Both the position numbers and the translations under genes were made by a program. The notes under the pieces were generated by a model, which saw nothing but the letters and a program-made list of their open reading frames with translations, ran no database searches and had not been told where the DNA came from. 43,576 nt of DNA from a bacterium. GTDB taxonomy: Bacteria; Krumholzibacteriota; Krumholzibacteriia; LZORAL124-64-63. The DNA lies in assembly GCA_031441465.1 (NCBI GenBank), contig JANOEP010000006.1, positions 1-43,576 on the forward strand, in the 5' to 3' direction. Positions 13,791 to 43,576 of this stretch are shown piece by piece. Numbering within the stretch: the first letter of the stretch is position 1; the number at the start of each line of letters is the position of its first letter.

Positions 13791-14882
13791 ATGCGGGAAC
13801 CGTCTCTGCCCGATCGCACCGACGGCGTCTGCGTCATCATGGCGGGGGGCCGGGGCACGCGCTTCTGGCCCCTCAGTCGTCTCGGTCGCCCCAAGCAACT
13901 GCTGCCGCTCGGCCGGCGGGGCACCCTGCTGCGCGAGACCTTCGAACGCGTCGAGCCCCTGGTCGGCGCGGGCCGTGTCCTGGTGATCACCCAGGCGGCC
14001 CAGGCCGCCGCCACCGCGGCCGAACTTCCCGAACTGACCCCGTCGCAGATCGTGGCCGAACCGTGCGGCCGCAACACGGCGGCGTGCGCCGCGCTCGGCG
14101 CCGCCGTCGCCGGCCGTCTGGCGCCGGGCGCGCCCCTGGCCCTGCTCCCCGCCGACCATCTCATCGGTGACGACCAGGCGTTCCGCGCGCAGCTGCGCCG
14201 GGCGTTCCAGCTGGCCGCCGCGGGGGCGGAGGTCGTGACGCTCGGCGTGCCGCCGCAGCGGCCCGCGACGGGCTACGGTTACATCGAGACGGCGCCCGGG
14301 ATCGCCGCCGGCGTCCTGCGCGGCGTGCGCTTCGTGGAAAAGCCCGGCGCGGCGGCGGCGGCCGGGTTCGTCGCCTCGGGGAACCACCTGTGGAACAGCG
14401 GTGTTTTTGTCTGGAACGCCGCCGGTTTTCAGCGGGCGCTCGCCGCCCACGCCCCCGGTCTCGCGGGACGGATGGATGCCGCGGCGGCAGCGTGGGGCGG
14501 GCCGGACTTCGCGGCGGCGCTCGCCGCCGCCTACGACGGTTGCCCGGCGCTCTCGGTCGACGTCGCGATCATGGAAAAACTGCGGGACTTCTGTGTCATC
14601 CCGGCGGCGTTCGCCTGGAGCGATCTCGGCAGCTGGGACAGTTGGCGGGAGCACGCCCCCGACCTGGGGGGCGACAACCGCGGCGTGGCCCGCCGCGTCA
14701 TGGGTGACGGGCGCGGCCACACGGTTCACGCTCCCGGCAAGACGGTCGTCCTGCTGGGCGTCGAGGACCTGATCGTCGTGGACACCCACGACGCCCTGCT
14801 GATCTGCCGCACCGACGCGGCCCAGCGGGTCAAGGAGATGACCGACAGGCTCGCGGCGCAAGGCGACGACGACCTGCTCTGA
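13791..14882 (+). CDS. manC: Mannose-1-phosphate guanylyltransferase
   Basis: IMAGGRGTRFWPLSR..RPKQLL, EPCGRNTA, PADH, TGYGYI, FVEKP, WNSGVF, WSDLGSW, LIVVDT.DALLI; no cupin PMI domain. Confidence 0.9.
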   Translation: MREPSLPDRTDGVCVIMAGGRGTRFWPLSRLGRPKQLLPLGRRGTLLRETFERVEPLVGAGRVLVITQAAQAAATAAELPELTPSQIVAEPCGRNTAACAALGAAVAGRLAPGAPLALLPADHLIGDDQAFRAQLRRAFQLAAAGAEVVTLGVPPQRPATGYGYIETAPGIAAGVLRGVRFVEKPGAAAAAGFVASGNHLWNSGVFVWNAAGFQRALAAHAPGLAGRMDAAAAAWGGPDFAAALAAAYDGCPALSVDVAIMEKLRDFCVIPAAFAWSDLGSWDSWREHAPDLGGDNRGVARRVMGDGRGHTVHAPGKTVVLLGVEDLIVVDTHDALLICRTDAAQRVKEMTDRLAAQGDDDLL

Positions 14883-32863: not shown

Positions 32864-33313
32864 GTGGGCAAGCGACGCAAGGGACGGGAACTGCTCGTGC
32901 AGGCCCTCTACGCGGCCGCCCTCAGCGGCCAGGATCTGCAGGTCTGCGTGGACGACCAGCTGGAACGGCGCGACGCGCCCGCCGACACGGCGGATTTCGT
33001 GCGCCCGCTCGCCGCGCGGATCGCGCAACACCGGGCGGGCCTCGACGCCATCCTGAACGGGCTCCTGCAGAACTGGGACCCCGAGCGCGTCGGCCAGGTG
33101 GAGCGCGCGATCTGCCGGCTGGCGCTGGCCGAACTGCGCTTCTGCCCCGACGTGCCGGTCAGGGTGGTGATCAACGAGGCCTGCGAGCTGGCGCGGTTGT
33201 ACTGCGGGGACGAGGCGGTGGGCTTCATCAACGGCCTGCTCGACCGCGCGGCGCGGGACCTCGCGACCGCCGCGCGCGGCGATGCGGGCGCCGGCGGGGG
33301 AGGCCCGCCGTGA
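32864..33313 (+). CDS. nusB: Transcription antitermination factor NusB
   Basis: RRKGRELLVQALY, NW..ER...VERAI.R, VPVRVVINEA.ELA, FINGLLD. Confidence 0.95.
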   Translation: MGKRRKGRELLVQALYAAALSGQDLQVCVDDQLERRDAPADTADFVRPLAARIAQHRAGLDAILNGLLQNWDPERVGQVERAICRLALAELRFCPDVPVRVVINEACELARLYCGDEAVGFINGLLDRAARDLATAARGDAGAGGGGPP

Positions 33314-34104
33314 GGGTCTCGACCCGCCGCCACTGGCAGGATTTCTGGGACGAGGCGGACCGGCTCAGCCTCGACGACGTCTACGGCAACGACGGCCGCA
33401 TCGTGCGCGAGCTGTTCGCGCTGGGCGATCCCGCGGGCAAGCGGGTCCTTGAGGTGGGGGCCGGCAGCGGCCGCGACGCCGTGGCGCTGGCCCGCGCCGG
33501 CGCGGAGGTCTGGACGCTGGACTACGTGCCGGGGTCGCTGGCGCTGACCGCGCGGGCCGCCGTGCAGGCCGGCGTCCGCGTGCAGGCGGTCAACGGCGAC
33601 GCCCTGTGCAAACCCTTCGCCGACGGGACCTTCGACCTCGTCTACCACCAGGGTCTGCTCGAGCATTTTCGCGACCCGCTGCCCCTGCTGCGCGAGGATC
33701 TGCGCGTGCTCAAGCCGGGCGGCCGGCTGCTGGTCGACGTGCCCCAGACCTGGCACTACTACACCCTGGGCAAGCAGCTGCTGATCGCGCTGAACCGCTG
33801 GTTCGCGGGCTGGGAGACGCAGTACACGCCGGCCCAGCTCGAGGACGTCGTCCGGCGCGCCGGGGGCGCGGTGGTGCGCACCTACGGCGACTGGATGGTG
33901 CCCGGCCTCTGGTACCGCGCGCTGCGCAAGACGCTGCTGTCCCGCCTGGGCCTGCGGCTGCCGATGTACCCGGACCCGGTGCCGCCGCTCGGGCGGTTGC
34001 TGGCGCGCTGGCGGCAGCGGCACCAAGGCCGGCGCTGGGCCCTGCACACCGCGATGACCATCGGGGTGATCGCGCGCCGCGACGACGCGGGAGGCGCCGC
34101 GTGA
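33310..34104 (+). CDS. Class I SAM-dependent methyltransferase
   Basis: VLEVGAGSG, PFADGTFDLV, LLEHF, LKPGG. Confidence 0.9.
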   Translation: MRVSTRRHWQDFWDEADRLSLDDVYGNDGRIVRELFALGDPAGKRVLEVGAGSGRDAVALARAGAEVWTLDYVPGSLALTARAAVQAGVRVQAVNGDALCKPFADGTFDLVYHQGLLEHFRDPLPLLREDLRVLKPGGRLLVDVPQTWHYYTLGKQLLIALNRWFAGWETQYTPAQLEDVVRRAGGAVVRTYGDWMVPGLWYRALRKTLLSRLGLRLPMYPDPVPPLGRLLARWRQRHQGRRWALHTAMTIGVIARRDDAGGAA

Positions 34105-35225
34105 GGATCCTGGCGCTGAACTGGCGCGACATCGGCGACCCCCTGGGGGGCGGCGCCGAACTGCACCTGCACGAGATCCTCAAGGGGGCCGTGGCCGCGG
34201 GCCACGAGGTGGACCTGGTGGTGGCCGGTTATCGCGGCGCGCCGGCGCAGGCGACGCTCGACGGCGTGCGCGTGCACCGGCGCGGCCATTGGGCCGTGGC
34301 CAACTTCGTCCTGCCGGGCGTGTGCCGCCGCCTGCTGCGCGCGAACCGCTACGACCTGCTGGTCGAGGATATCAACAAGGTCCCCTTCTGCTCGCCGCTG
34401 TTCGCCGGCGGCGTGCCCGTGCTCGCGGTCGTGCCGCACCTGTTCGGCGCCACGGTCTTCCGCGAAGCCAACCCCCTGGTGGCGTCCTACGTCTGGGCCG
34501 CCGAACGCCTGCTGCCCTGGCTCTACCGCGGCCGGGATTTCGAGGTCATCAGCCCCTCGACCCGCGACGACCTCGTGGCCCGCGGCCTGGACGCCGCGCG
34601 GATCCGCACCGTGCACTGCGGCAACGACGCCGGGCGCCTGGAACTGCGCGACCCGCCCCCGCGCGATGATCCCCCCCTGCTGGTCTCGTGGAGCCGTCTG
34701 CGCCGCTACAAGAGCGTGGAGGTGGCGCTGCGCGCCTTCGCGCACGTGCGCCGCGAAATTCCGGGCGCCCGACTCGTCGTGATGGGCCGGGGGCCGGACG
34801 AACCCCGATTGCGCCGCGTCGCCGCCCGCCTGGGCCTCGGCGACGAGGTCGTGTTCGCCGGCTACCTCCCCGGCGCGGAACTGGCGGCGACCCTGCACCG
34901 GGCCCGCCTCTTCCTGAACCCCAGTCCCAAAGAGGGCTGGGGGCTGACCGTCATCGAAGCCGCCGCCTGCGGGCTGCCGACGGTGGCGAGCGACCGGCCC
35001 GGCCTGCGCGACTCGGTGCGTGACGGCGAGACGGGCCAGCTGGTCCCCTACGGCGACGACCGGGCCATGGCCGCCGCCGCCGTCGCCCTGCTGCGCGACG
35101 AGGCCCGCTGGCGCGCGATGAGCGGGGCCGCCCGCGCCTGGGCCGGCACGTTCAGCTGGGAGCGCTGCGTGCGCGAGTCCCTGGACGTGTTCGAAGACGT
35201 CGCCGCTCGCGGGGGCCGACCTTGA
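34101..35225 (+). CDS. Glycosyltransferase family 4
   Basis: ILALNWRD..P.GGGAE, SRL..YK, SPKEGWGLTVIEAAACG.P.VASD.PGL, FSW. Confidence 0.92.
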   Translation: MRILALNWRDIGDPLGGGAELHLHEILKGAVAAGHEVDLVVAGYRGAPAQATLDGVRVHRRGHWAVANFVLPGVCRRLLRANRYDLLVEDINKVPFCSPLFAGGVPVLAVVPHLFGATVFREANPLVASYVWAAERLLPWLYRGRDFEVISPSTRDDLVARGLDAARIRTVHCGNDAGRLELRDPPPRDDPPLLVSWSRLRRYKSVEVALRAFAHVRREIPGARLVVMGRGPDEPRLRRVAARLGLGDEVVFAGYLPGAELAATLHRARLFLNPSPKEGWGLTVIEAAACGLPTVASDRPGLRDSVRDGETGQLVPYGDDRAMAAAAVALLRDEARWRAMSGAARAWAGTFSWERCVRESLDVFEDVAARGGRP

Positions 35226-36199
35226 AGCGCCTCCGGCCGGCGACGATCCTGAAGACGGGGGTCAGCCTCGCCTTGGTGGTGTTCCTGTTCGCCTACCGCC
35301 CCCTGTCCTGGTCGACCCTGCGCGCGGCGGTGGCGGCCCCGGACTGGCCGTGGTTCGCCCTGTCGGGATTCGTCTTCGCCTTGTCGGCGGTGTGCGGCGC
35401 GCTGCAGTGGGCCTGGATCCTGCGCTGCTCGGGACTGCGGGTCTCGATCGGCGAGGCGGTCCGCTTGAGTTTCGTCGGGCTCTTCTTCAACAACTTCCTG
35501 CTGGGCAACGTGGGCGGCGACGCCTACAAGGTCGTCGACCTGGGCCGTCGCGAGGGGCGCACCGCCGCGGTGCTGGGGGCGACCCTGTTGGATCGGCTGC
35601 TGGGGTTGCTGGCGCTGACCGTGCTCGCGCTGCTGGCGGTCCCGACCGCGGCGGCGGCGGGCGTGCGCGTGCCGCCGACGCTCCCGCTGTGGCTGGCGCT
35701 GGTGGGCTGGAGCGGCGCGTTCGCCGTCCTGTTTTCCAGCCGCCTCTCGGCGCTGGCGGTCCGCGCCCTGGAGGCCGTGCGCTGGCGGCGGGCCGCCGCC
35801 GGCCTGGGCGCGATGCTGTTGGAGTTCCGGACTTATCGCGCCCGGAAGGGCTGGCTGGCGCGCTTGCTGGCGTGGTCCCTGCTCGTGCAGGCCATGCGCG
35901 TGGCGACGCACCTGCTGGTGGCGCTCGGCCTGGGGCTCGCCCTGGACGGGGGCCGCGTCCTGCAGCTGTGCGTGCTGGTGCCCCTGCTGGGCATCCTGGT
36001 CTCGTTGCCGGTGAGCATCAACGGGCTGGGCGTGCGCGAACTGGCCGCCGCGGAGCTGTTCGTGGCCGCCGGCGTGGTGCCCACCGAAGCCGACGCCGTG
36101 GCCATGGAGTTCCTGGCCTACGCCCTGATGGTCGCGGTCAGCCTGGTCGGCGGCGTGCTCTTCCTGACCGGCCCGCGCCGGCGTCACGACGACGCCTGA
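35222..36199 (+). CDS. Lysylphosphatidylglycerol-synthase TM / flippase-like (UPF0104) membrane protein
   Basis: GLFFNNFL.GNVGGD, DRLLG, LPVSINGLGVRE; multiple TM helices. Confidence 0.88.
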   Translation: MKRLRPATILKTGVSLALVVFLFAYRPLSWSTLRAAVAAPDWPWFALSGFVFALSAVCGALQWAWILRCSGLRVSIGEAVRLSFVGLFFNNFLLGNVGGDAYKVVDLGRREGRTAAVLGATLLDRLLGLLALTVLALLAVPTAAAAGVRVPPTLPLWLALVGWSGAFAVLFSSRLSALAVRALEAVRWRRAAAGLGAMLLEFRTYRARKGWLARLLAWSLLVQAMRVATHLLVALGLGLALDGGRVLQLCVLVPLLGILVSLPVSINGLGVRELAAAELFVAAGVVPTEADAVAMEFLAYALMVAVSLVGGVLFLTGPRRRHDDA

Positions 36200-36229
36200 C
36201 CCCTGCCGGCCGGCGCGGCGGGGGAGGGG

Positions 36230-36277
36230 AACCCCGCCCGGCGCGGGGTTGTTGCCCCGCGGACCGTGTGCTAGATT
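36230..36277 (+). promoter_or_regulatory. Hairpin followed by a putative promoter for the DUF2723 gene
   Basis: AACCCCGC/GCGGGGTT stem (36230-36250); TTGTTG(36249-36254)-17-TAGATT(36272-36277) with extended TG. Confidence 0.5.
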
Positions 36278-36317
36278 GGCCCGTCTTGGACGCCGGAACC
36301 CGAATCCGAGGAATTCC

Positions 36318-38867
36318 ATGCTGGCACCCGACTGGTACCGCCGCCCGACGTTCCTGATCGCGGCGGGCGTCTTCGCCGTCGCGACGATCGTCTACTGCCT
36401 GACCCTGCCGCAGACGCTGAGCTTCTGGGACTGCGGCGAGTACATCACCACCGCGCACACCATGGGCGTCCCGCACCAGCCCGGCACGCCGCTCTACGTG
36501 CTGGTCGGCCGCTTCTTCGACATCCTGCTCGCGCCGCTGGTCGGCACCGCGACGGCGGTCAACTTCATGTCGGCGTTCTTCAGCGCCCTGGCCCTGGTGT
36601 TCCTGTACCTGACGATCCAGGACATCGCCCGGCGCGCCGACCCCGACAGCGGGTGGCTGCCCCACGCCGGCGGCGTGGTGGGGGCGCTGTTCCTGCTGTT
36701 CAGCGAGACCTACTGGAACAACGCCATCGAAGCCGAGGTGTACGGGCTGGCGGCCTTCGTCGTCGCGTTCCTGACCTGGCTGGGCCTGAAGTGGTACGAC
36801 ATCCGCGACGAGCAGCACAGCGATCGGCTGCTCTACCTCGTCATCTACCTGCTGGGCCTGGGGGTCGGCTTCCACCTGGGCACGCTGCTGGTCTACCCGG
36901 GCATCTTCCTGCTGATCGTGCTGGCGCGCGGCCGCAAGCTCGCGCTGGTGGACCTCATGGGCGTCAGCGTCGGCCTAGGCCTGTTCCTGCTCTCGACGAT
37001 CGTCAAGGACGACGTTGTGATCGTCAGCGGCCTGGTCCTGCTGCTGGCCTTCGCCGGGTGGCGCGCCTACGGGGGCAAGCCCTTCATCCTGATCGGCTGC
37101 GGGGTGTTCCTGCTCGGCCTGAGCGTCCACCTGATCCTGCTGATCCGCGCCGGTCTCGCCCCGGCCCTCAACAACACGCAGCCCGACAACTTCCAGACCC
37201 TGATGTCGGTGCTGCGCCGCGAGCAGTACCCGCCCATCGATCCCCTGGTGCGCAAGGCCGACCTGTGGTGGCAGGTCCGCTACTACTACGGCTTCCTGCT
37301 GGACCAGTTCAGCTTCCTGGACCTCGGCCAGGTCCGCCTGACGCGCCTGCTGACGATCTTCGTGCCGGTGTTCCTGGGCCTGCTGGGGGCGATCCACGGG
37401 TTCTTCCGCTGCCGCCCCTGGTACTGGATGCTGCTGGTGAACTACCTGATCAACGCGGACATCCTGAACCTCTACCTGAACTTCTCGGACAACGAGGTCC
37501 GCGCCCGCGACTACTTCTTCTCCACCGGCTTCATGTTCTTCGCCCTGTTCATCGGTCTGGGTGCGGCGGCTCTGCTGCGCTACCTCTCGGGGCCGCTCGC
37601 GGCGCGCGGCGCCCGCAACGCGCCGCCGGCCCGGATCGGCCGGGCGGCGACGGTGACGGCGGCGGCGCTGATCCTGGTCGCGGCCCTGCCGGCGCTCGCA
37701 CCCGGCAATACGAAGTGGTACACCCATGACCGCACGGAAAACCGCACGGCGCACGAGTACGCCTGGAACCTCCTGGCCGGCCTGGACCCCGGCGCCATCG
37801 TCTTCACCAACGGGGACAACGACACCTACCCGCTGTGGTACCTGCAGGAGGTGGAGGGATTCCGGCGCGACGTCACGGTCGTGAACCTGGCGCTGATCAA
37901 CCTGCCCTGGTACGTCAAGCAGATGAAGCGCCGCCACCCGCCGATGCCCGTTTCCTACGACGACGCGCAGGTCGAGCAGCTGCGCGCAGTGATGTACGAG
38001 GACCCCGACACCGGGCAGCGCGAGGTCGTGTACGTGCGCGACTACATCGTGCACGACATCATCCAGAACCGCGGCCAGCGCCCGGTCTTCTTCGCCGTGA
38101 CGATTCCCCAGGAAAACATGGCCCGCTATTTCCCGATGCTCCAGATGGAGGGGCTGGCGTACCGCTTCACCGGCGTCAAGGGGCAGGACGGCCTGCCCAC
38201 GGTCGACGCCGACCGCCTGCTGGCGAACTGCTACGGGATCTACGATTTCAGCGCCACCCTGGACGGCGACTCGGCGCGACGGCGCTCCGAGTTCCTCGCC
38301 CTGAACAACCTGCCGCAGAACCCGAGCCCCGAGGGTGAGGTCCGCGAGATCCTGGGCGAGCGCGACTGGCGCTTCGACGGGCTGTGGCGGCAGAACGGCC
38401 GCCACCGCCAGGACGTCCACTTCGACCGCAACGCCGAGAACCTGCTGGGCAACTACCCGGCGGGCCTGATCCGCGCCGGCTACGACTACATCATGCGGGC
38501 GCAGGCGCCCGGCGCCACCGACGCCGACTACGACGAGATGATCACCAAGGCGGAGAACGCGTTCGAACTGGCCAGCAGCTTCGACCCCACGTTCCCGATG
38601 GTGACCGACATCTACCCCATGGTGCTGGTCGAGCGCGGCCGCGCCCAGGACGCCGCCGCCCACGTCCAGCGCCTCCACGGGGCGATCCCGCCTCGGGACG
38701 AGCAGGCCCTGATCCCGCAGCTGGTCCAGGCCATGGTGCAGCGCGGGCAGGACGCCACGGCCATCGCCTGGATGGAGCAGCGCCTGCGCGACGATCCCCG
38801 GGACGCCGTGGCGAGCCAGCAGCTCGAAGCCCTGCGCCGGCCGGGCGCCGCCGGGAGCACGCCATGA
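36318..38867 (+). CDS. DUF2723 / TMEM260-like GT-C glycosyltransferase with C-terminal TPR-like helices
   Basis: TLSFWDCGEYI…GVPHQPGTPLY, W..AIEAEVY, L.REQY, R.RDYFF, FTNGDNDTYPLWYLQEVEGFRRDV.VVNL.L...WY; many TM helices. Confidence 0.92.
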   Translation: MLAPDWYRRPTFLIAAGVFAVATIVYCLTLPQTLSFWDCGEYITTAHTMGVPHQPGTPLYVLVGRFFDILLAPLVGTATAVNFMSAFFSALALVFLYLTIQDIARRADPDSGWLPHAGGVVGALFLLFSETYWNNAIEAEVYGLAAFVVAFLTWLGLKWYDIRDEQHSDRLLYLVIYLLGLGVGFHLGTLLVYPGIFLLIVLARGRKLALVDLMGVSVGLGLFLLSTIVKDDVVIVSGLVLLLAFAGWRAYGGKPFILIGCGVFLLGLSVHLILLIRAGLAPALNNTQPDNFQTLMSVLRREQYPPIDPLVRKADLWWQVRYYYGFLLDQFSFLDLGQVRLTRLLTIFVPVFLGLLGAIHGFFRCRPWYWMLLVNYLINADILNLYLNFSDNEVRARDYFFSTGFMFFALFIGLGAAALLRYLSGPLAARGARNAPPARIGRAATVTAAALILVAALPALAPGNTKWYTHDRTENRTAHEYAWNLLAGLDPGAIVFTNGDNDTYPLWYLQEVEGFRRDVTVVNLALINLPWYVKQMKRRHPPMPVSYDDAQVEQLRAVMYEDPDTGQREVVYVRDYIVHDIIQNRGQRPVFFAVTIPQENMARYFPMLQMEGLAYRFTGVKGQDGLPTVDADRLLANCYGIYDFSATLDGDSARRRSEFLALNNLPQNPSPEGEVREILGERDWRFDGLWRQNGRHRQDVHFDRNAENLLGNYPAGLIRAGYDYIMRAQAPGATDADYDEMITKAENAFELASSFDPTFPMVTDIYPMVLVERGRAQDAAAHVQRLHGAIPPRDEQALIPQLVQAMVQRGQDATAIAWMEQRLRDDPRDAVASQQLEALRRPGAAGSTP

Positions 38868-39871
38868 CGGGCGAGGCCGGCCTCGCGAGCGGGGCGCGCG
38901 TCGTGGTGACCGGCTGCGCGGGGTTCATCGGCAGCCACCTCGCCGAAGCCCTGCTGGAGCGCGGCTGCGCGGTCGTCGGCATCGACGCGCTGACCGACTA
39001 CTACGACCCGGCGCTCAAGCGCGAGAACCTGGCGCCGCTGCTGGGGCGGCCGGGATTCACGTTCCACCACGCCGACCTGAACGACGTCGACGCGGTCGAG
39101 CTGCTCGCCGGCAGCCGCGCCGTGTTCCACCTCGCCGCCCAAGCCGGCGTGCGCGCCAGCTGGGGGAGCCAGTTCGGCGACTACCTGTCCCGCAACCTGG
39201 CCGCCACCCAGCGCCTGCTGGAGGCCTGCCGCGACCCGAGGGTGGCGCCGGGGCTCGCCCGGTTCGTGTATTCCAGTTCGAGTTCGGTCTACGGCGACCG
39301 CCTCGACCTGCCGGTGACCGAGCGCGCGCTGCCGCAGCCGTTCTCGCCGTACGGCGTGACCAAGCTGGCGGCCGAGCACCTCTGCGTGCTCTACAGCGCC
39401 AACCACGGCGTGCCGACCACGTCCCTGCGCTACTTCACCGTCTACGGGCCGCGCCAGCGGCCCGACATGGCCTTCCGCAAGTTCCTCGAGGCGGCCTTCG
39501 ACGGGAAGCCCTGGCTCGTCTTCGGCGACGGGTCCCAGACGCGGGACTTCACCTACGTGGCGGACGCGGTGAACGCGAACCTCCTGGCGGTCGGCGCGCC
39601 CGGGCCGTGGGCCGTGTACAACGTCGGCGGCGGCTCGCGCATCGCGCTGGACGCGGCCCTGACGGTCATGCGCGACCTGCTGCGCGAGGCGGCGCCCGAA
39701 GTCCGCGTCGTGATCGAACACGTGCCGGTCGAGAAGGGCGACGTGCGCGACACCTGGGCCGATCCCGGCCGCATCCGCGACGAGATCGGCTACGTCGCGC
39801 AAGTTCCGTTCGGCGAGGGGTTGCGCCGGGAAGTTTTCTGGGTCGCCGCGCGCAGGAGGGGACATGCCTGA
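38864..39871 (+). CDS. NAD-dependent nucleotide-sugar epimerase (UDP-glucuronate 4-epimerase-like)
   Basis: TGCAGFIGSH, YYDPALK, HLAAQAGVR, SSSSVYG, YGVTK, FTVYGPRQRPDMA. Confidence 0.9.
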   Translation: MTGEAGLASGARVVVTGCAGFIGSHLAEALLERGCAVVGIDALTDYYDPALKRENLAPLLGRPGFTFHHADLNDVDAVELLAGSRAVFHLAAQAGVRASWGSQFGDYLSRNLAATQRLLEACRDPRVAPGLARFVYSSSSSVYGDRLDLPVTERALPQPFSPYGVTKLAAEHLCVLYSANHGVPTTSLRYFTVYGPRQRPDMAFRKFLEAAFDGKPWLVFGDGSQTRDFTYVADAVNANLLAVGAPGPWAVYNVGGGSRIALDAALTVMRDLLREAAPEVRVVIEHVPVEKGDVRDTWADPGRIRDEIGYVAQVPFGEGLRREVFWVAARRRGHA

Positions 39872-40799
39872 CGTCCGGCTCGACCTCTCGGTGGTGGTGC
39901 CCGCGCTGAACGAGGCGGAATCGCTGCCCGAACTGGTGGCGCGCATCGCGGCCGCGGCGGCCGCGGCGGGGCTGTCGCACGAGGTGTGGATCATCGACGA
40001 CGGCAGCACCGACGACACGCCCGGCGTCCTGGAGCGGTTGCACGCCGCCGACGCCCGCGTCCGCGGTCTGGAGTTCACGCGCAACCACGGCAAGGCCGCC
40101 GCCCTGGCGGCCGGCTTCGCGGCCGCGACCGGGCGTTACGTGGTCACCATGGACGCCGACCTGCAGGACGACCCCGACGAGATCCCGCACCTCGTGGCGA
40201 AGCTGGAAGAAGGTTACGACCTCGTCTCGGGCTGGAAGCAGGACCGCAAGGACGGCTTCGTCAAGAACACCTCGTCGCGCTTCTTCAACGCGGTCACCAG
40301 CCGCGCCGTCGGTCTGCGCCTGCACGACTACAACTGCGGCCTGAAGGCCTACCGCCGCGAGGTCGTCGAGGCGGTGCGCCTCTACGGCGAGATGCACCGC
40401 TACATCCCGGCGCAGGCGTACCGCGAGGGGTTCCGGGTGACCGAGATCCCCGTCCGGCACCACCGCCGCCGCCACGGCGTCACCAAGTACGGCCCGGCCC
40501 GCTTCCTCAACGGCTTCCTGGACCTGCTGACCCTGATGTTCCTCAGCTCGCGCTCCGCGTCGCCCCTGCACCTGTTCGGGCGGATCGGCGCGGCCAGCTT
40601 CGCCGTCGGCGGCGCGATCCTGGCCTGGTTCCTCGTCCAGTGGGCGCTGGGGCACGGGCTGCGCGTGCGGCCGCTGATGCTGCTCGGCGCCGGTCTGGTC
40701 ATCGTCGCCGTCCAGTTCGTCAGCCTCGGCCTCATCGCCGAACTGGTGGTGGCGGGCAACCATCCCGAGACCGGGTACCGTGTCCGCCGCCGGCACTGA
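39864..40799 (+). CDS. GT2 polyprenol-phosphate glycosyltransferase (DPM1/GtrB/ArnC-like)
   Basis: VVPALNE, IDDGSTD, RNHGKAAAL, MDADLQDDP, HDYNCGLKAYR, GEMHRYIP; two C-terminal TM helices. Confidence 0.92.
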   Translation: MPDVRLDLSVVVPALNEAESLPELVARIAAAAAAAGLSHEVWIIDDGSTDDTPGVLERLHAADARVRGLEFTRNHGKAAALAAGFAAATGRYVVTMDADLQDDPDEIPHLVAKLEEGYDLVSGWKQDRKDGFVKNTSSRFFNAVTSRAVGLRLHDYNCGLKAYRREVVEAVRLYGEMHRYIPAQAYREGFRVTEIPVRHHRRRHGVTKYGPARFLNGFLDLLTLMFLSSRSASPLHLFGRIGAASFAVGGAILAWFLVQWALGHGLRVRPLMLLGAGLVIVAVQFVSLGLIAELVVAGNHPETGYRVRRRH

Positions 40800-41748
40800 C
40801 GCCGGCACCGGCGTCGCCGGTGTGACGACCGAGACGCCGCCGTCACTCGCGGTGGTCGTCGTCAACTGGAACGGCCGCGACCACCTTCCCGAGTGCATCG
40901 GCTCCCTGCTCGCCGACGGCTACGACCCCCTGCGCATCGTCGTCGTCGACAACGCGTCGACGGACGGGTCGGACCAGTTCTGTCGCGACGCCTTCCCTTC
41001 GGTCGAAATCGTCGTCAGCGATCGCAACCGCTATTGGGCGGGCGGCAACAACCTCGGTCTGCGGCACCTGCGGGCGACCGGGGGCGCGGATTTTACGCTG
41101 CTGCTCAACAACGACACCATCGTGCCGCAGGGGAGTCTCGCCCGTCTGGTGGAGGCGGCCGTCCGCGAACCGGGTGCCTGGGCGGCGACGCCGCGCATCT
41201 GCTTCGCGGACGAGCCGTGGCGCATCTGGTACGACGGCGGGCGGGTCGGGCGCTTCTCGGGCTGGGTGGGGCACCAGGGCATCCGGAAAGCCGCCGGCCG
41301 CCGCGCGCTCGACGAGCGTTTCGTGGAGTACGGGACGGGCTGCGCGCTGCTGCTGTCGCGCCGGGCCCTGGCGGCGGTGCCGGAACTGGACGAGGCCTAC
41401 ACGTTCTACGGCGAGGACACCGACTACTGCCTGCGCCTGCGGGCCGCCGGCGGCCGCATCCTGCACGTCCCGCGGTCGCTGATCCTGCACAAGGTGAGCG
41501 CGTCGGTCGGCGCCCGGTCGCCCCGCAAGGCCTACCTGCGCAGCCGCAGCCACGTCCGGCTGCTGAAGCACCACTGGCGGGGGACGGCGCGCGCGGCGCT
41601 CTGGCCTTGCCAAGCGGCGTACTTCGCCGGGCACGCGGTCTGGCACCTGTGGCAGGGGAGGCCCGCCGTCGCGCGCGCCGTCCTGACGGGCGCCCTGGAC
41701 GAACTGACGGGGCGGCCCACGGAACCCCCTGTCGCTCCTCGGGTTTGA
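40780..41748 (+). CDS. GT2 glycosyltransferase (WbbL/rhamnosyltransferase-like)
   Basis: VVVVNWNG, VVDNASTDGS, GGNNLG, LLLNNDT, TGCALL, FYGEDTDYCLR, ILHKVSAS; start may be the GTG at 40822. Confidence 0.88.
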   Translation: MSAAGTDAGTGVAGVTTETPPSLAVVVVNWNGRDHLPECIGSLLADGYDPLRIVVVDNASTDGSDQFCRDAFPSVEIVVSDRNRYWAGGNNLGLRHLRATGGADFTLLLNNDTIVPQGSLARLVEAAVREPGAWAATPRICFADEPWRIWYDGGRVGRFSGWVGHQGIRKAAGRRALDERFVEYGTGCALLLSRRALAAVPELDEAYTFYGEDTDYCLRLRAAGGRILHVPRSLILHKVSASVGARSPRKAYLRSRSHVRLLKHHWRGTARAALWPCQAAYFAGHAVWHLWQGRPAVARAVLTGALDELTGRPTEPPVAPRV

Positions 41749-41762
41749 CCGTCTCTCGGGAG

Positions 41763-41792
41763 TGGACGCCCGCGGTCGCCGGATGATATCCT
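41763..41792 (+). promoter_or_regulatory. Putative promoter for the YfhO-like gene
   Basis: TGGACG(41763-41768)-18-TATCCT(41787-41792) with extended TG. Confidence 0.5.
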
Positions 41793-41838
41793 CGATCGGT
41801 ATGGTGCCGCGGCCACGCCGCATCCGAAAGGGAACCAC

Positions 41839-43576
41839 GTGCGCGTCAACCACGACCGTCCCGGCGCCGGGACCGGCCCGCGTCGCCGCCTGCTGCATGC
41901 CGGCGGGATCGCCCTGGCCCTGCTGGTCCTGCTGGGGCTGCTCTACCCCGAAGCGCTGCTGCAGGGCCGGGTGTTCGGCAGCAGCGACGCCGAGAACGCC
42001 GCGCTGTTCACGATCGTCGGCGACGCCTCGCTCGCCCGCGGCGTCTACCCGCAGTGGAACCCCTACCTGTTCGCCGGGATGCCGACCTTCGGTTCGCTGT
42101 CGTACACCCGTTTCGTCTACCCGCCCGGCGAAGCGCTGACCTACCTGCAGGACCACCTCGGTTTCCCGCCCCTGACCTGGATGCTGGCGCACCTGCTGCT
42201 CGGCGGCGCCGGCATGGTCTGGCTGCTGGGTCGCTGGCGGCTGCCCCTGCCGGCGCGGCTGCTCGGAGCGGCGGTCTGGCTGCTCCAGCCCAACGTCGTG
42301 GCCTGGGGCGTGCACGGCCACGGCAGCAAGCTGGTGACGGCCATGTACCTGCCCTGGATCGTGGGCTCGTGCCTGGACTTGCTGGAAGGGAAGGGCCGCC
42401 GGCGGGCCGCCCTGCTCGCGTTGGCCGTCGCGCTGCAGGTCCTGCGCGGCCACGTCCAGATCCTCTACTATTCGCTGCTGTGCGTGGGTGTCCTGGTGCT
42501 GGGCAAGTGGGTCGCCGTGCTGGTGGCCCGGCGGCGGCGTGTCGCCGGCGCGGGTGGCTGGCCCTGGCGGCCGACCGCTGCGATCGGCGCCGCCCTGGTG
42601 GCGGCGTTCCTGGTCGGCGCTGTCCAGTTGCTGCCGGTGCGCGAGTACGCCGGCTGGTCGGTGCGGGGCTCGTCCGAGGGGGGCGGCGCCAGCTACGAGT
42701 ACGCCACCGGTTGGAGCCTGCACCCGCGGGAATTCCCGACCCTCGTCCAGCCGGCGGCCGCCGGCTTCGGACTGGGCACCTACCAGGGCTTCATGCCGTT
42801 CACGGATTACCCCAACTACTTTGGCTGGCTGCTGCTGACGCTCGCGGCTCTCGGCGCCTGGGCCGTGCCGCGCTGGCCGCAACGCGCGCTGGTGGCGCTG
42901 GCCCTGATGTCGCTGCTGGTCGCCTGCGGACGCTTCTTCCCGGTGCTGTACGGCCCGTTCTACCACCTGCTGCCGTACTTCAACAAGTTCCGCATCCCGG
43001 TGATGATCCTGTCGGTGACGGGCTTCGCGCTGGCGGTCCTGGCGGCGCACGGCGTGGCCGCCCTGCACGGCGCCGGGGCCGGAGCGCGCCTGCCGCGACG
43101 GCTGGCCTGGGTCTGGCTGGGGCTCGGCGCCGTCTCGCTCCTGGGCGCGCTGGGACCGGGCAAGGGGCTGCACGCTTCCCAACTCGCGAGCCTGGCCGCC
43201 GCTTCCGGTCGGGGCGCCCCCGCGCCCGAGGTCCTCGCCGCGGCTTGGAGCCTGCAGCGGGCTGACCTGCTGCGCATCGGCCTGCTGCTCGTCGCCGCCG
43301 GCGCCGCCACCTGGTTCGGAACGCGTGGGGCCGCGCCGCGCCGCGCCTGGCTGCCCTGGGTCCTGCTGGCGCTCGTGTCGGTGGACCTGCTCGGTGTGGC
43401 GAGCCGGATCACCCATCCCGAACGCGGGCTGCAACAACTCGCCCGGCGGGCCGACGGGGGCGCCTCCCTGGTGCCGGCCGGAGATCTCATCCGGCAGGCC
43501 GCGCGGCGCTCGGCGTTCCGGGCGGATCCTTTCCTGGTCGAGGTGGCGCAGCTCGTCGGTCACGAACGCGTGTGGC
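41839..43576 (+). CDS. YfhO-family GT-C membrane protein, 3'-truncated (absent from the ORF track because it has no stop in the window)
   Basis: Manual frame-1 translation: QWNPYLFAGMP, HGHGSKL, GHVQILYY, SVRG, YATGWS, PFTDYPNYFG, PYFNKFRIP; open to the window end. Confidence 0.88.
   Translation, partial: MRVNHDRPGAGTGPRRRLLHAGGIALALLVLLGLLYPEALLQGRVFGSSDAENAALFTIVGDASLARGVYPQWNPYLFAGMPTFGSLSYTRFVYPPGEALTYLQDHLGFPPLTWMLAHLLLGGAGMVWLLGRWRLPLPARLLGAAVWLLQPNVVAWGVHGHGSKLVTAMYLPWIVGSCLDLLEGKGRRRAALLALAVALQVLRGHVQILYYSLLCVGVLVLGKWVAVLVARRRRVAGAGGWPWRPTAAIGAALVAAFLVGAVQLLPVREYAGWSVRGSSEGGGASYEYATGWSLHPREFPTLVQPAAAGFGLGTYQGFMPFTDYPNYFGWLLLTLAALGAWAVPRWPQRALVALALMSLLVACGRFFPVLYGPFYHLLPYFNKFRIPVMILSVTGFALAVLAAHGVAALHGAGAGARLPRRLAWVWLGLGAVSLLGALGPGKGLHASQLASLAAASGRGAPAPEVLAAAWSLQRADLLRIGLLLVAAGAATWFGTRGAAPRRAWLPWVLLALVSVDLLGVASRITHPERGLQQLARRADGGASLVPAGDLIRQAARRSAFRADPFLVEVAQLVGHERVW

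Follow-up and report, generated by a model that had tools for sequence, protein, structure and literature searches.

A candidate operon for extracytoplasmic glycosylation with a TMEM260-like glycosyltransferase in the Krumholzibacteriota

The gene cluster downstream of nusB

The window studied here is the whole of contig JANOEP010000006.1 (C6 below), 43,576 bp of a Krumholzibacteriota genome (GCA_031441465.1) with an assembly size of 3.49 Mb, 74 contigs, 72% GC and a completeness of 96.8%. Its first 33 kb contain housekeeping genes, among them pgpA, cinA, recA, recX, rmlD, prs and ribosomal protein genes, and further ones upstream of the cluster are pth, selA, smc, ftsY and a riboflavin operon up to nusB. 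Then follow eight co-directional genes (Table 1), which encode a methyltransferase, a family 4 glycosyltransferase (GT4), an MprF-type flippase-like protein, an 849-residue TMEM260-like protein, a short-chain dehydrogenase/reductase (SDR), two family 2 glycosyltransferases (GT2), the first of them ArnC-like, and a distant YfhO-like GT-C protein. The TMEM260-like protein is the main subject of this work. Pfam, NCBIfam and the translations place all of these genes where an earlier reading, made from the DNA letters alone (the sequence-only reading), had placed them, and all are on the plus strand. As the window is an entire contig, the cluster is truncated by the contig end. Our preferred explanation is an operon of about 12 genes, found throughout the phylum, that serves extracytoplasmic glycosylation from lipid-phosphate sugar donors and of which the window would hold the first two thirds; we regard the chances of this reading as about even.

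The genes are tightly packed. Start and stop codons overlap at six of the eight junctions (nusB/methyltransferase, methyltransferase/GT4, GT4/flippase-like, TMEM260-like/SDR, SDR/GT2, and GT2/GT2), the overlap between the SDR stop and the start of the ArnC-like GT2 being 8 nucleotides (nt). Only two intergenic gaps occur, one of 118 nt in front of the TMEM260-like gene and one of 90 nt in front of the last gene. Contigs from three RNA libraries (biofilm, aquifer), representing relatives that are about 90-93% identical, overlie positions 32866-41013 and span the nusB/methyltransferase/GT4, the GT4/flippase-like/TMEM260-like, and the SDR/GT2/GT2 junctions. This is a weak hint that the cluster is expressed; such contigs cannot prove a single transcript, and RNA libraries may contain DNA.

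The genes are also strongly conserved together, so that a lack of co-conservation, which the sequence-only reading had named as a refutation, is not borne out. An ortholog of the TMEM260-like protein (E <= 1e-20) is found in 120 of 121 evenly sampled genomes of the phylum, including all 104 high-quality genomes and all 66 genera, and the sole miss is a genome that is 83% complete. When 18 loci on long contigs were picked from nine families, the gene order was intact in 17; the exception is an incomplete second copy in family f8, of which another genome contains the full set. The ribH-nusB pair precedes the cluster in 17 of the 18 loci, while 12 of the 17 syntenic ones have a recognisable second GT2. 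Seven of seven close loci, in which the TMEM260-like protein is 51-91% identical to that of the window, keep the order ribH, nusB, methyltransferase, GT4, flippase-like, TMEM260-like, SDR, GT2, GT2, YfhO-like up to the limits of their contigs. The operon is thus flanked by ribH-nusB on one side, and on the other by a PorZ-like gene and the division and cell wall (dcw) cluster.

The closest named record of the TMEM260-like protein, at 91% identity, is from a metagenome-assembled genome labelled Gemmatimonas sp., and the labels of other relatives disagree (Krumholzibacteriia, Latescibacteria, Fibrobacteraceae). In three loci labelled Fibrobacterota the TMEM260-like gene again comes after ribH-nusB, and in one of these (L062) nusB is followed by a five-gene core that encodes TMEM260-like, YfhO, GT4, flippase-like and ArnC-like GT2 proteins. 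In 70 loci of Bacteroidota or Cloacimonadota type, no partner proteins were found within 10 kb except a weak GT4 (L078) and a GT2c-like protein (L014). The family is large; one genome scan yielded 597 relatives, 972 proteins match at E <= 1e-10, and the precomputed annotation assigns PF11028 to all 120 homologs listed.

Some further features of the TMEM260-like loci may be recorded. In family f4 (L094, L095) the TMEM260-like gene is duplicated in tandem, with two copies side by side, and many f4 genomes have four matches. A polysaccharide deacetylase gene of carbohydrate esterase family 4 (CE4; about 211 aa) lies at most 5 kb from the TMEM260-like gene in 43 of the 70 Bacteroidota- or Cloacimonadota-type loci (L011-L083). 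The ArnC/ArnT pathway includes an enzyme of CE4 type, ArnD. Other recurrent neighbours in these loci are the housekeeping genes nusA, infB, and rimP.

The last gene of the window resumes on the reverse strand of another contig, C2, the end of which overlaps the last 138 nt of the window (43439-43576). C6 and C2 are adjacent in the chromosome, with the assembly break inside the YfhO-like gene, because 46 codons are identical between the two contig ends. On C2 the C-terminus of the YfhO-like protein is followed by a short GT2, a GT2 fusion, an 803-residue secreted protein (the PorZ-like protein), mraZ, rsmH, ftsI and murE. The short GT2 is nearest to the lipid-phosphate sugar synthases AglJ, PpgS and Dol-P-hexose synthase. 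In the fusion, which is kept across the phylum, a GT2 is joined to the N-terminal membrane/CoA_binding_3 part of a WbaP/WcaJ-type protein (model positions 2-279 of 445), and the catalytic Bac_transf domain was not detected in it.

The label YfhO, given by the sequence-only reading, stands on relatives more than on the gene fragment itself. The fragment in the window has no Pfam or NCBIfam family match, and the C-terminal part on C2 reaches 27.8 bits, just under the cut-off. A full-length ortholog in locus L005 scores 29.0 bits against the cut-off of 28.5, over its C-terminal 49 residues only. In the ESM Atlas 30 of 30 neighbours of this last gene fall in YfhO-bearing clusters (score 0.99), and the L062 gene in the corresponding position is assigned to YfhO (PF09586) with 81.7 bits and E 5e-23.

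Table 1. Genes discussed in the text. Positions refer to the window unless a contig or locus is given.
Gene or product	Position	Strand	Evidence and remarks
manC-like gene	13791..14720		between rplI and a gene for a peptidyl-prolyl isomerase/TPR protein; GMP_PMI model positions 3-278 of 467 (nucleotidyltransferase part), 219.8 bits, cut-off 373
nusB, last housekeeping gene before the operon	32864..33313	+	Pfam NusB E 5e-28
Class I S-adenosylmethionine-dependent methyltransferase, 264 aa, cytoplasmic	33310..34104	+	Methyltransf_11 E 1.5e-20; NCBIfam matches all sub-threshold
GT4 (GT-B), GTG start	34101..35225	+	Glycos_transf_1 E 7.8e-36, Glyco_transf_4; closest solved relatives are generic GT4 enzymes, e.g. 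BshA, MshA, PimA
MprF-type flippase-like membrane protein	35222..36199	+	LPG_synthase_TM PF03706 E 8e-28
TMEM260-like GT-C (GT117 type), 849 aa	36318..38867	+	PF11028 E 5e-51
SDR nucleotide-sugar 4-epimerase (predicted), ATG start	38864..39871	+	Epimerase E 2.4e-55
Polyprenyl-phosphate sugar synthase (predicted), GT2 with two C-terminal transmembrane segments	39864..40799	+	ArnC/GtrB/DPMS class
Second GT2 (GT-A), no transmembrane segment seen, cytoplasmic	40780..41748	+	Glycos_transf_2 E 3.4e-18
Distant YfhO-like GT-C, 5' 579 codons	41839..43576	+	cut by contig end
YfhO-like GT-C, continuation	C2, about 15179 to 14265	-	tblastn
GT2/CoA_binding_3 fusion	L084:11463-13949	-
PorZ-like protein, 803 aa, secreted	L084:9055-11475	-	directly after the operon
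TMEM260-like paralog, contig C16	L085:8189-10435	-
TMEM260-like paralog, contig C9	L086:8629-10749	+

The TMEM260-like enzyme and its probable donor

The TMEM260-like protein matches PF11028 with 173.3 bits, the gathering score being 24.2. Its homology to human TMEM260 (PDB 9rql_A), proposed in the sequence-only reading, is confirmed by phmmer (E 5.7e-20, stretches 16-221 and 470-541) as well as by a profile search (E 2.3e-35). According to a preprint on the human enzyme, D52 and H67 bind the donor mannose, R264 and Y267 bind phosphate and sugar, and D441 in the luminal Rossmann-like domain, not D52, is the catalytic base (bioRxiv 10.64898/2026.03.17.711096). The same source reports that D52A, H67A, R264A, Y267A and D441A abolish the activity, while R355A retains about 20% of it. 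That D52A is inactive was first shown by Larsen et al. (PMC10214176).

Residues 33-60 of the window enzyme read TLSFWDCGEYITTAHTMGVPHQPGTPLY. In the sequence alignment D38 and H53 of this first loop align with human D52 and H67, and D500 aligns with D441; none of the three varies among the 34 aligned relatives. D38 is the Asp of the WDCGE motif, to which the sequence-only reading had drawn attention as the catalytic residue. Its alignment with human D52 and its conservation show it to be a key residue, while the role of catalytic base would belong to D500 instead. HMMER leaves the middle of the protein unaligned to human TMEM260. R301 and Y304, which are invariant among the aligned relatives, can nevertheless be placed transitively, since a paralog on contig C16 has its R-x-x-Y motif on human R264/Y267 and MAFFT puts the motif of the paralog on R301/Y304. 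With moderate confidence, resting on this alignment via the paralog, R301/Y304 thus correspond to R264/Y267. Conservation peaks in the first loop, at R-x-x-Y, at EVRxRDY and at the invariant FTNGDNDT, and fades in the repeat tail, a gradient that is described for the human enzyme too.

The protein is predicted to have a GT-C fold. Its AlphaFold2 model (pLDDT 85.2, pTM 0.84) displays 11-12 transmembrane helices, a periplasmic Rossmann-like domain and a helical-repeat tail resembling tetratricopeptide repeats (TPR), with alternating strands and helices across residues 494-617. VIA-align matches the model to ArnT (Z 21.6, 444 residues aligned, root-mean-square deviation 5.3), ALG12 (21.1), and AftB (20.7), and among the protein mannosyltransferases (PMTs) to Pmt1/2 (20.6) and Pmt4 (20.1). 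The TPR-like tail has weaker support than the sequence-only reading suggests. Residues 704-840 form helical repeats in the model and profile searches match solved TPR proteins at E 1e-5 to 1e-4, while Pfam TPR_14 remains below threshold (E 0.015) and the structural TPR matches (Z 6.5-8.4) are too low to be safe where helical repeats are concerned. Relatives labelled Fibrobacterota carry clear TPR matches.

Two more TMEM260-like paralogs are found in unrelated contexts in the genome (Table 1), and both keep the Asp/His/Asp residues. The paralog on contig C16, with the motifs GDSGELI and RGD, aligns contiguously with human TMEM260 (22-485 versus 28-489) at 174 bits, while the operon copy scores 74 bits. 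The operon copy is the more divergent of the three paralogs, and the C16 copy, an orphan gene, is the one nearest to the human enzyme. Besides the TMEM260-like and YfhO-like genes the genome has five PMT_2-type GT-C matches, four of them above the cut-off.

The neighbouring genes suggest what the donor might be. The best solved matches of the SDR are PDB 6zl6 (E 3e-67), a Bacillus cereus enzyme, and MoeE5 (E 2.4e-58), both of which we take to be UDP-glucuronate 4-epimerases. In the B. cereus enzyme Arg185 is described as holding the carboxylate of galacturonic acid (GalA) (PMC12338863), and 6zl6 agrees in its numbering. Y149 and R185 both have conserved counterparts in the SDR, T126 is replaced by Ser and P85 by Ala; Ala at the latter position is also reported for UDP-xylose synthase (PMC12338863).

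The gene overlapping that of the SDR encodes a GT2 that ends in two hydrophobic segments and is most similar to ArnC (9hwj, E 5.1e-56 over residues 8-295), followed by GtrB (sll0501, E 5.5e-30) and dolichyl-phosphate mannose synthase (DPMS, E 6.9e-18). The NCBIfam scores rank similarly, with ArnC at 194.9 bits (cut-off 529), PgfS at 131.1 and AglJ at 94.9, all below the equivalog cut-offs. According to tblastn (E < 1e-6) it is the only ArnC-type synthase in the genome besides the short GT2 on C2. Two genes of the UDP-sugar dehydrogenase family are found elsewhere in the genome. A donor sugar of uronic acid type is therefore more likely than mannose, at which the sequence-only reading had hinted, because the SDR resembles UDP-glucuronate 4-epimerases and the synthase resembles ArnC. 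The donor of the TMEM260-like enzyme would be an undecaprenyl-phosphate uronic acid, probably GalA. Since either GT-C gene has a synthase gene shortly after it, the YfhO-like enzyme would draw on a second donor, the product of the short GT2 encoded on C2.

The flippase-like protein consists of LPG_synthase_TM alone, without the synthase domain, and is the sole PF03706 match in the genome. It reaches 44.8 bits with the 'flippase-like domain' model TIGR00374, for which the cut-off is 43.2.

Taken together these genes would form the following pathway. The SDR would convert UDP-glucuronic acid to UDP-GalA or a closely related 4-epimer, and the ArnC-like GT2 would load the epimerised sugar on undecaprenyl phosphate at the cytoplasmic face. 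The MprF-type protein may then move a lipid-linked sugar to the outer leaflet, where the TMEM260-like enzyme would transfer one sugar, with inversion, to an acceptor hydroxyl in the periplasm. The short Dpm1/PpgS-like GT2 encoded on C2 and the YfhO-like GT-C would be a second pair that adds a different sugar. In the sequence-only reading, elongation and methylation came after the periplasmic transfer. This order does not hold, since the GT4, the GT2 and the methyltransferase use cytoplasmic donors and no export signal or periplasmic domain is seen in any of them, so that they must act before flipping. The GT4, the other GT2s and the methyltransferase would thus work in the cytoplasm on a lipid-linked intermediate, not on the finished periplasmic product.

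Protein or glycan as the acceptor

The most likely acceptors are Ser/Thr residues of exported envelope proteins, a choice to which we give close to, if not quite, even weight. Four observations support it. The only characterised member of the family is a protein O-mannosyltransferase. The Asp of the catalytic base in the Rossmann-like domain is retained, as the repeat tail appears to be, and these form the peptide groove of the human enzyme. YfhO-type enzymes are able to glycosylate proteins, as the streptococcal family members PgtC2 and PgfM1 are reported to O-glycosylate Ser/Thr-rich protein regions with donors made by GtrB/PgfS (PMC12041528). Finally, Pfam searches of the window and C2 reveal no phosphoglycosyltransferase catalytic domain, Wzx, Wzy or WaaL in the operon.

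A number of points weigh against a protein acceptor or against parts of the pathway above. The IPT/TIG domain (PF01833), which is the acceptor type of the human enzyme, has no matches in this 96.8%-complete genome (controls match in 2 of 14 genomes). Four cytoplasmic transferases, a methyltransferase and a PorZ-like neighbour fit a lipid-linked glycan better than the addition of a single sugar to protein. ArnC-type donors serve lipid A modification. In locus L062 a gene of the GT9 heptosyltransferase family comes right after the module. The invariant TNGDNDT around the catalytic base replaces human RGDLPGN, a swap that could reflect another kind of acceptor. In the region of human R355 there are invariant R395 and R397 (EVRARDY), and the alignment here is gapped and ambiguous. 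The repeat tail is weakly conserved and under the Pfam TPR thresholds, and the change from P85 to Ala in the SDR leaves the identity of the donor sugar less than certain. YfhO enzymes of Bacillus and Listeria are moreover described as glycosylating teichoic acids (PMC12041528). The idea of a human-type IPT/TIG sequon was dropped when PF01833 gave no match.

A stronger version of the protein reading would be that the TMEM260-like enzyme initiates general protein O-glycosylation in this uncultured phylum, placing a uronic acid or some further sugar other than mannose, donated by an undecaprenyl-phosphate carrier, on Ser/Thr residues of exported proteins, with the approximately 86 cargo proteins of the type IX secretion system (T9SS) among its substrates, and that relatives in the FCB group (Fibrobacterota, Chlorobiota, Bacteroidota) act alike. 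We think this rather unlikely.

Somewhat behind proteins, and still a serious contender, stands a glycolipid or a glycan of lipopolysaccharide (LPS) type that serves as an anchor. The operon would then build and decorate a lipid-linked anionic glycan, to which the PorZ-like protein binds and to which T9SS cargo becomes attached. The GT4, the GT2s and the methyltransferase would assemble the core in the cytoplasm, the MprF-like protein would flip it, and the two GT-C enzymes would add branch sugars in the periplasm, one of them possibly GalA. The TMEM260-like enzyme would in that case act on a sugar hydroxyl and not on protein. As a complete account of the operon this falls well short of even chances, although it gives the cytoplasmic transferases a clear role and agrees with the acidic sugar to which the SDR points.

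Much of what speaks for an anchor glycan comes from the 803-residue protein encoded directly after the operon. It is predicted to contain two beta-propellers and a T9SS sorting tail (model pLDDT 87.8), and the best Foldseek match of the model is PorZ (5m11; E 1.7e-26, TM 0.60/0.64), the next being BT4663 (E 4.9e-22, TM 0.32-0.34). NCBIfam describes PorZ as an anionic-LPS delivery protein. In all 12 genomes examined, drawn from nine families, the last GT2 gene is succeeded by one for a homolog of the PorZ-like protein, and in the present genome the T9SS C-terminal sorting domain is matched 86 times. By sequence the resemblance to PorZ is confined to the sorting tail. A phmmer search of the 803-residue protein against the PDB gave nothing below E 0.28, and the NCBIfam PorZ model covers only the tail, reaching 32 bits where the cut-off is 260; similar matches of this model occur at 37 further places in the genome. 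Five of the 12 homologs match only over the C-terminal 200-250 residues.

The GT9-family gene in L062 fits with glycan assembly, and there are precedents in that ArnC/ArnT and GtrB/Gtr systems act on lipid A or O-antigen (PMC11127046) and that HexSDF of Clostridioides difficile, consisting of a glycosyltransferase and an MprF-like flippase, is described as making a membrane glycolipid (PMC10128005). Against this, the operon contains no lipid A, core or O-antigen ligase genes, and neighbourhood is not function. The relatives in the Bacteroidota-type loci lack the operon partners, and PF11028 also matches in Bacteroides thetaiotaomicron, which belongs to a genus that to our knowledge is without type IX secretion.

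It would be possible to retain elongation and methylation in a workable order if the glycan were transferred en bloc. The ArnC/AglJ-like GT2 would start a glycan on polyprenyl monophosphate as archaeal AglJ does, the glycan would be extended and methylated in the cytoplasm and then flipped, and the TMEM260-like GT-C would act as an oligosaccharyltransferase moving it whole to protein, with the YfhO-like enzyme adding the last sugar. In Haloferax the pathway employs AglJ together with soluble glycosyltransferases and the methyltransferase AglP, and it has hexuronic acids on its dolichyl phosphate. The absence of a phosphoglycosyltransferase catalytic domain from the operon is consistent with such a route, and so are the AglJ scores of the ArnC-like GT2 and of the second GT2 on C2 (61.6 bits), although all of these are far under the equivalog cut-offs. 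The best Foldseek matches of the whole model are the oligosaccharyltransferases AglB, STT3 and PglB at E around 1e-5, but these are generic GT-C matches, and ArnT, ALG12, AftB and the PMTs score higher by VIA-align. No bacterial case in which an oligosaccharide linked to a monophosphate lipid is passed to protein is known to us. Human TMEM260 is furthermore reported to move a single mannose, its donor pocket touching one sugar (bioRxiv 10.64898/2026.03.17.711096). En bloc transfer is thus improbable.

Least credible of all is protein O-mannosylation from a mannosyl-phosphate lipid in the manner of human TMEM260, fed by the manC-like gene and with elongation and methylation after the transfer, for although the family homology exists and a gene resembling GDP-mannose pyrophosphorylase is present, that gene is separated from the cluster by 19.5 kb that include ribosomal, SMC, ftsY and riboflavin genes as well as an amidase gene on the opposite strand, the gene overlapping the synthase encodes a uronate-epimerase-like SDR, the synthase is nearer to ArnC than to DPMS, cytoplasmic enzymes cannot modify a periplasmic glycoprotein, and the genome has no IPT/TIG acceptors.

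Relation to known glycosylation systems

That TMEM260 is a glycosyltransferase became known only in 2023, and a structure followed in 2026 (bioRxiv 10.64898/2026.03.17.711096). The family is large, yet our full-text literature searches found no study of a bacterial GT117/TMEM260 member or of this operon. GT117, the ArnC class, YfhO and three-component systems (PMC11127046) are known kinds, while the bacterial GT117 enzyme and its operon are, as far as we searched, new to print. Here a TMEM260-like enzyme is encoded together with its likely donor pathway in a phylum-fixed locus, which makes it a system that can be reconstituted in order to determine donor and acceptor of GT117. The PorZ-like neighbour offers a testable tie between periplasmic glycosylation and T9SS surface anchoring outside the Bacteroidota. 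If general protein O-glycosylation proved to be true, GT117 would be a widespread protein-glycosylating family in bacteria, and the animal enzyme would descend from its ancestors.

Compared with PorZ and anionic LPS in the T9SS attachment complex of Porphyromonas gingivalis (5M11), the 803-residue protein is predicted to have the same architecture of propellers and sorting tail, and the genome is likewise rich in T9SS cargo. It differs in that there is no sequence-level match outside the tail. In P. gingivalis the gene for PorZ is presumably not located beside a GT-C operon.

The streptococcal Pgf system (PgfS, PgfE, PgfM1, PgfM2) and GtrB/PgtC2 are described with an epimerase, a GT2 synthase and two GT-Cs in one operon, as is the case here (PMC12041528, PMC5856776). 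The YfhO-type enzymes of streptococci put single sugars on Ser/Thr of exported proteins (PMC12041528), and the window synthase matches the PgfS model, with 131 bits and below its cut-off. In the Gram-positive streptococci, however, both GT-Cs are of YfhO type, while one is a GT117 enzyme here, and the sugars are GalNAc or Glc. An MprF-like gene, a GT4 and a methyltransferase, all present here, have no counterpart there.

In the three-component systems (GtrA/GtrB/Gtr*, ArnC/ArnEF/ArnT, and the pentofuranose system of Citrobacter; PMC11127046) the genes for a polyprenyl-phosphate sugar synthase of the ArnC/GtrB class, a candidate flippase and a GT-C lie together, and sugar addition takes place outside the cytoplasm. 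The same grouping is found here, and the same site of addition is predicted. Unlike in those systems, the flippase candidate is MprF-type and not GtrA, SMR or MATE, and the GT-C is a GT117 enzyme with a TPR-like tail. There are also two putative synthase/GT-C pairs, four cytoplasmic transferases and a methyltransferase, and the genes form a fixed core locus by housekeeping genes instead of a variable serotype locus.

Human TMEM260 (CAZy GT117; 9RQL/9RQM/9RQN), an O-mannosyltransferase of IPT domains in the endoplasmic reticulum, belongs to the same Pfam family as the window enzyme. Both would have a GT-C core followed by an extracytoplasmic Rossmann-like domain and a helical-repeat tail, and the first-loop Asp/His, the R-x-x-Y of the donor-loading loop and the Asp of the catalytic base appear to be retained. 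The two enzymes are nevertheless distant at 74 bits, the bacterial one has TNGDNDT in place of RGDLPGN, and its genome lacks IPT/TIG domains. While the human enzyme uses Dol-P-Man, the gene context here predicts a uronic acid-type undecaprenyl phosphate donor, and the bacterial gene, unlike the human one, is part of an operon that also encodes the putative donor pathway and a second GT-C.

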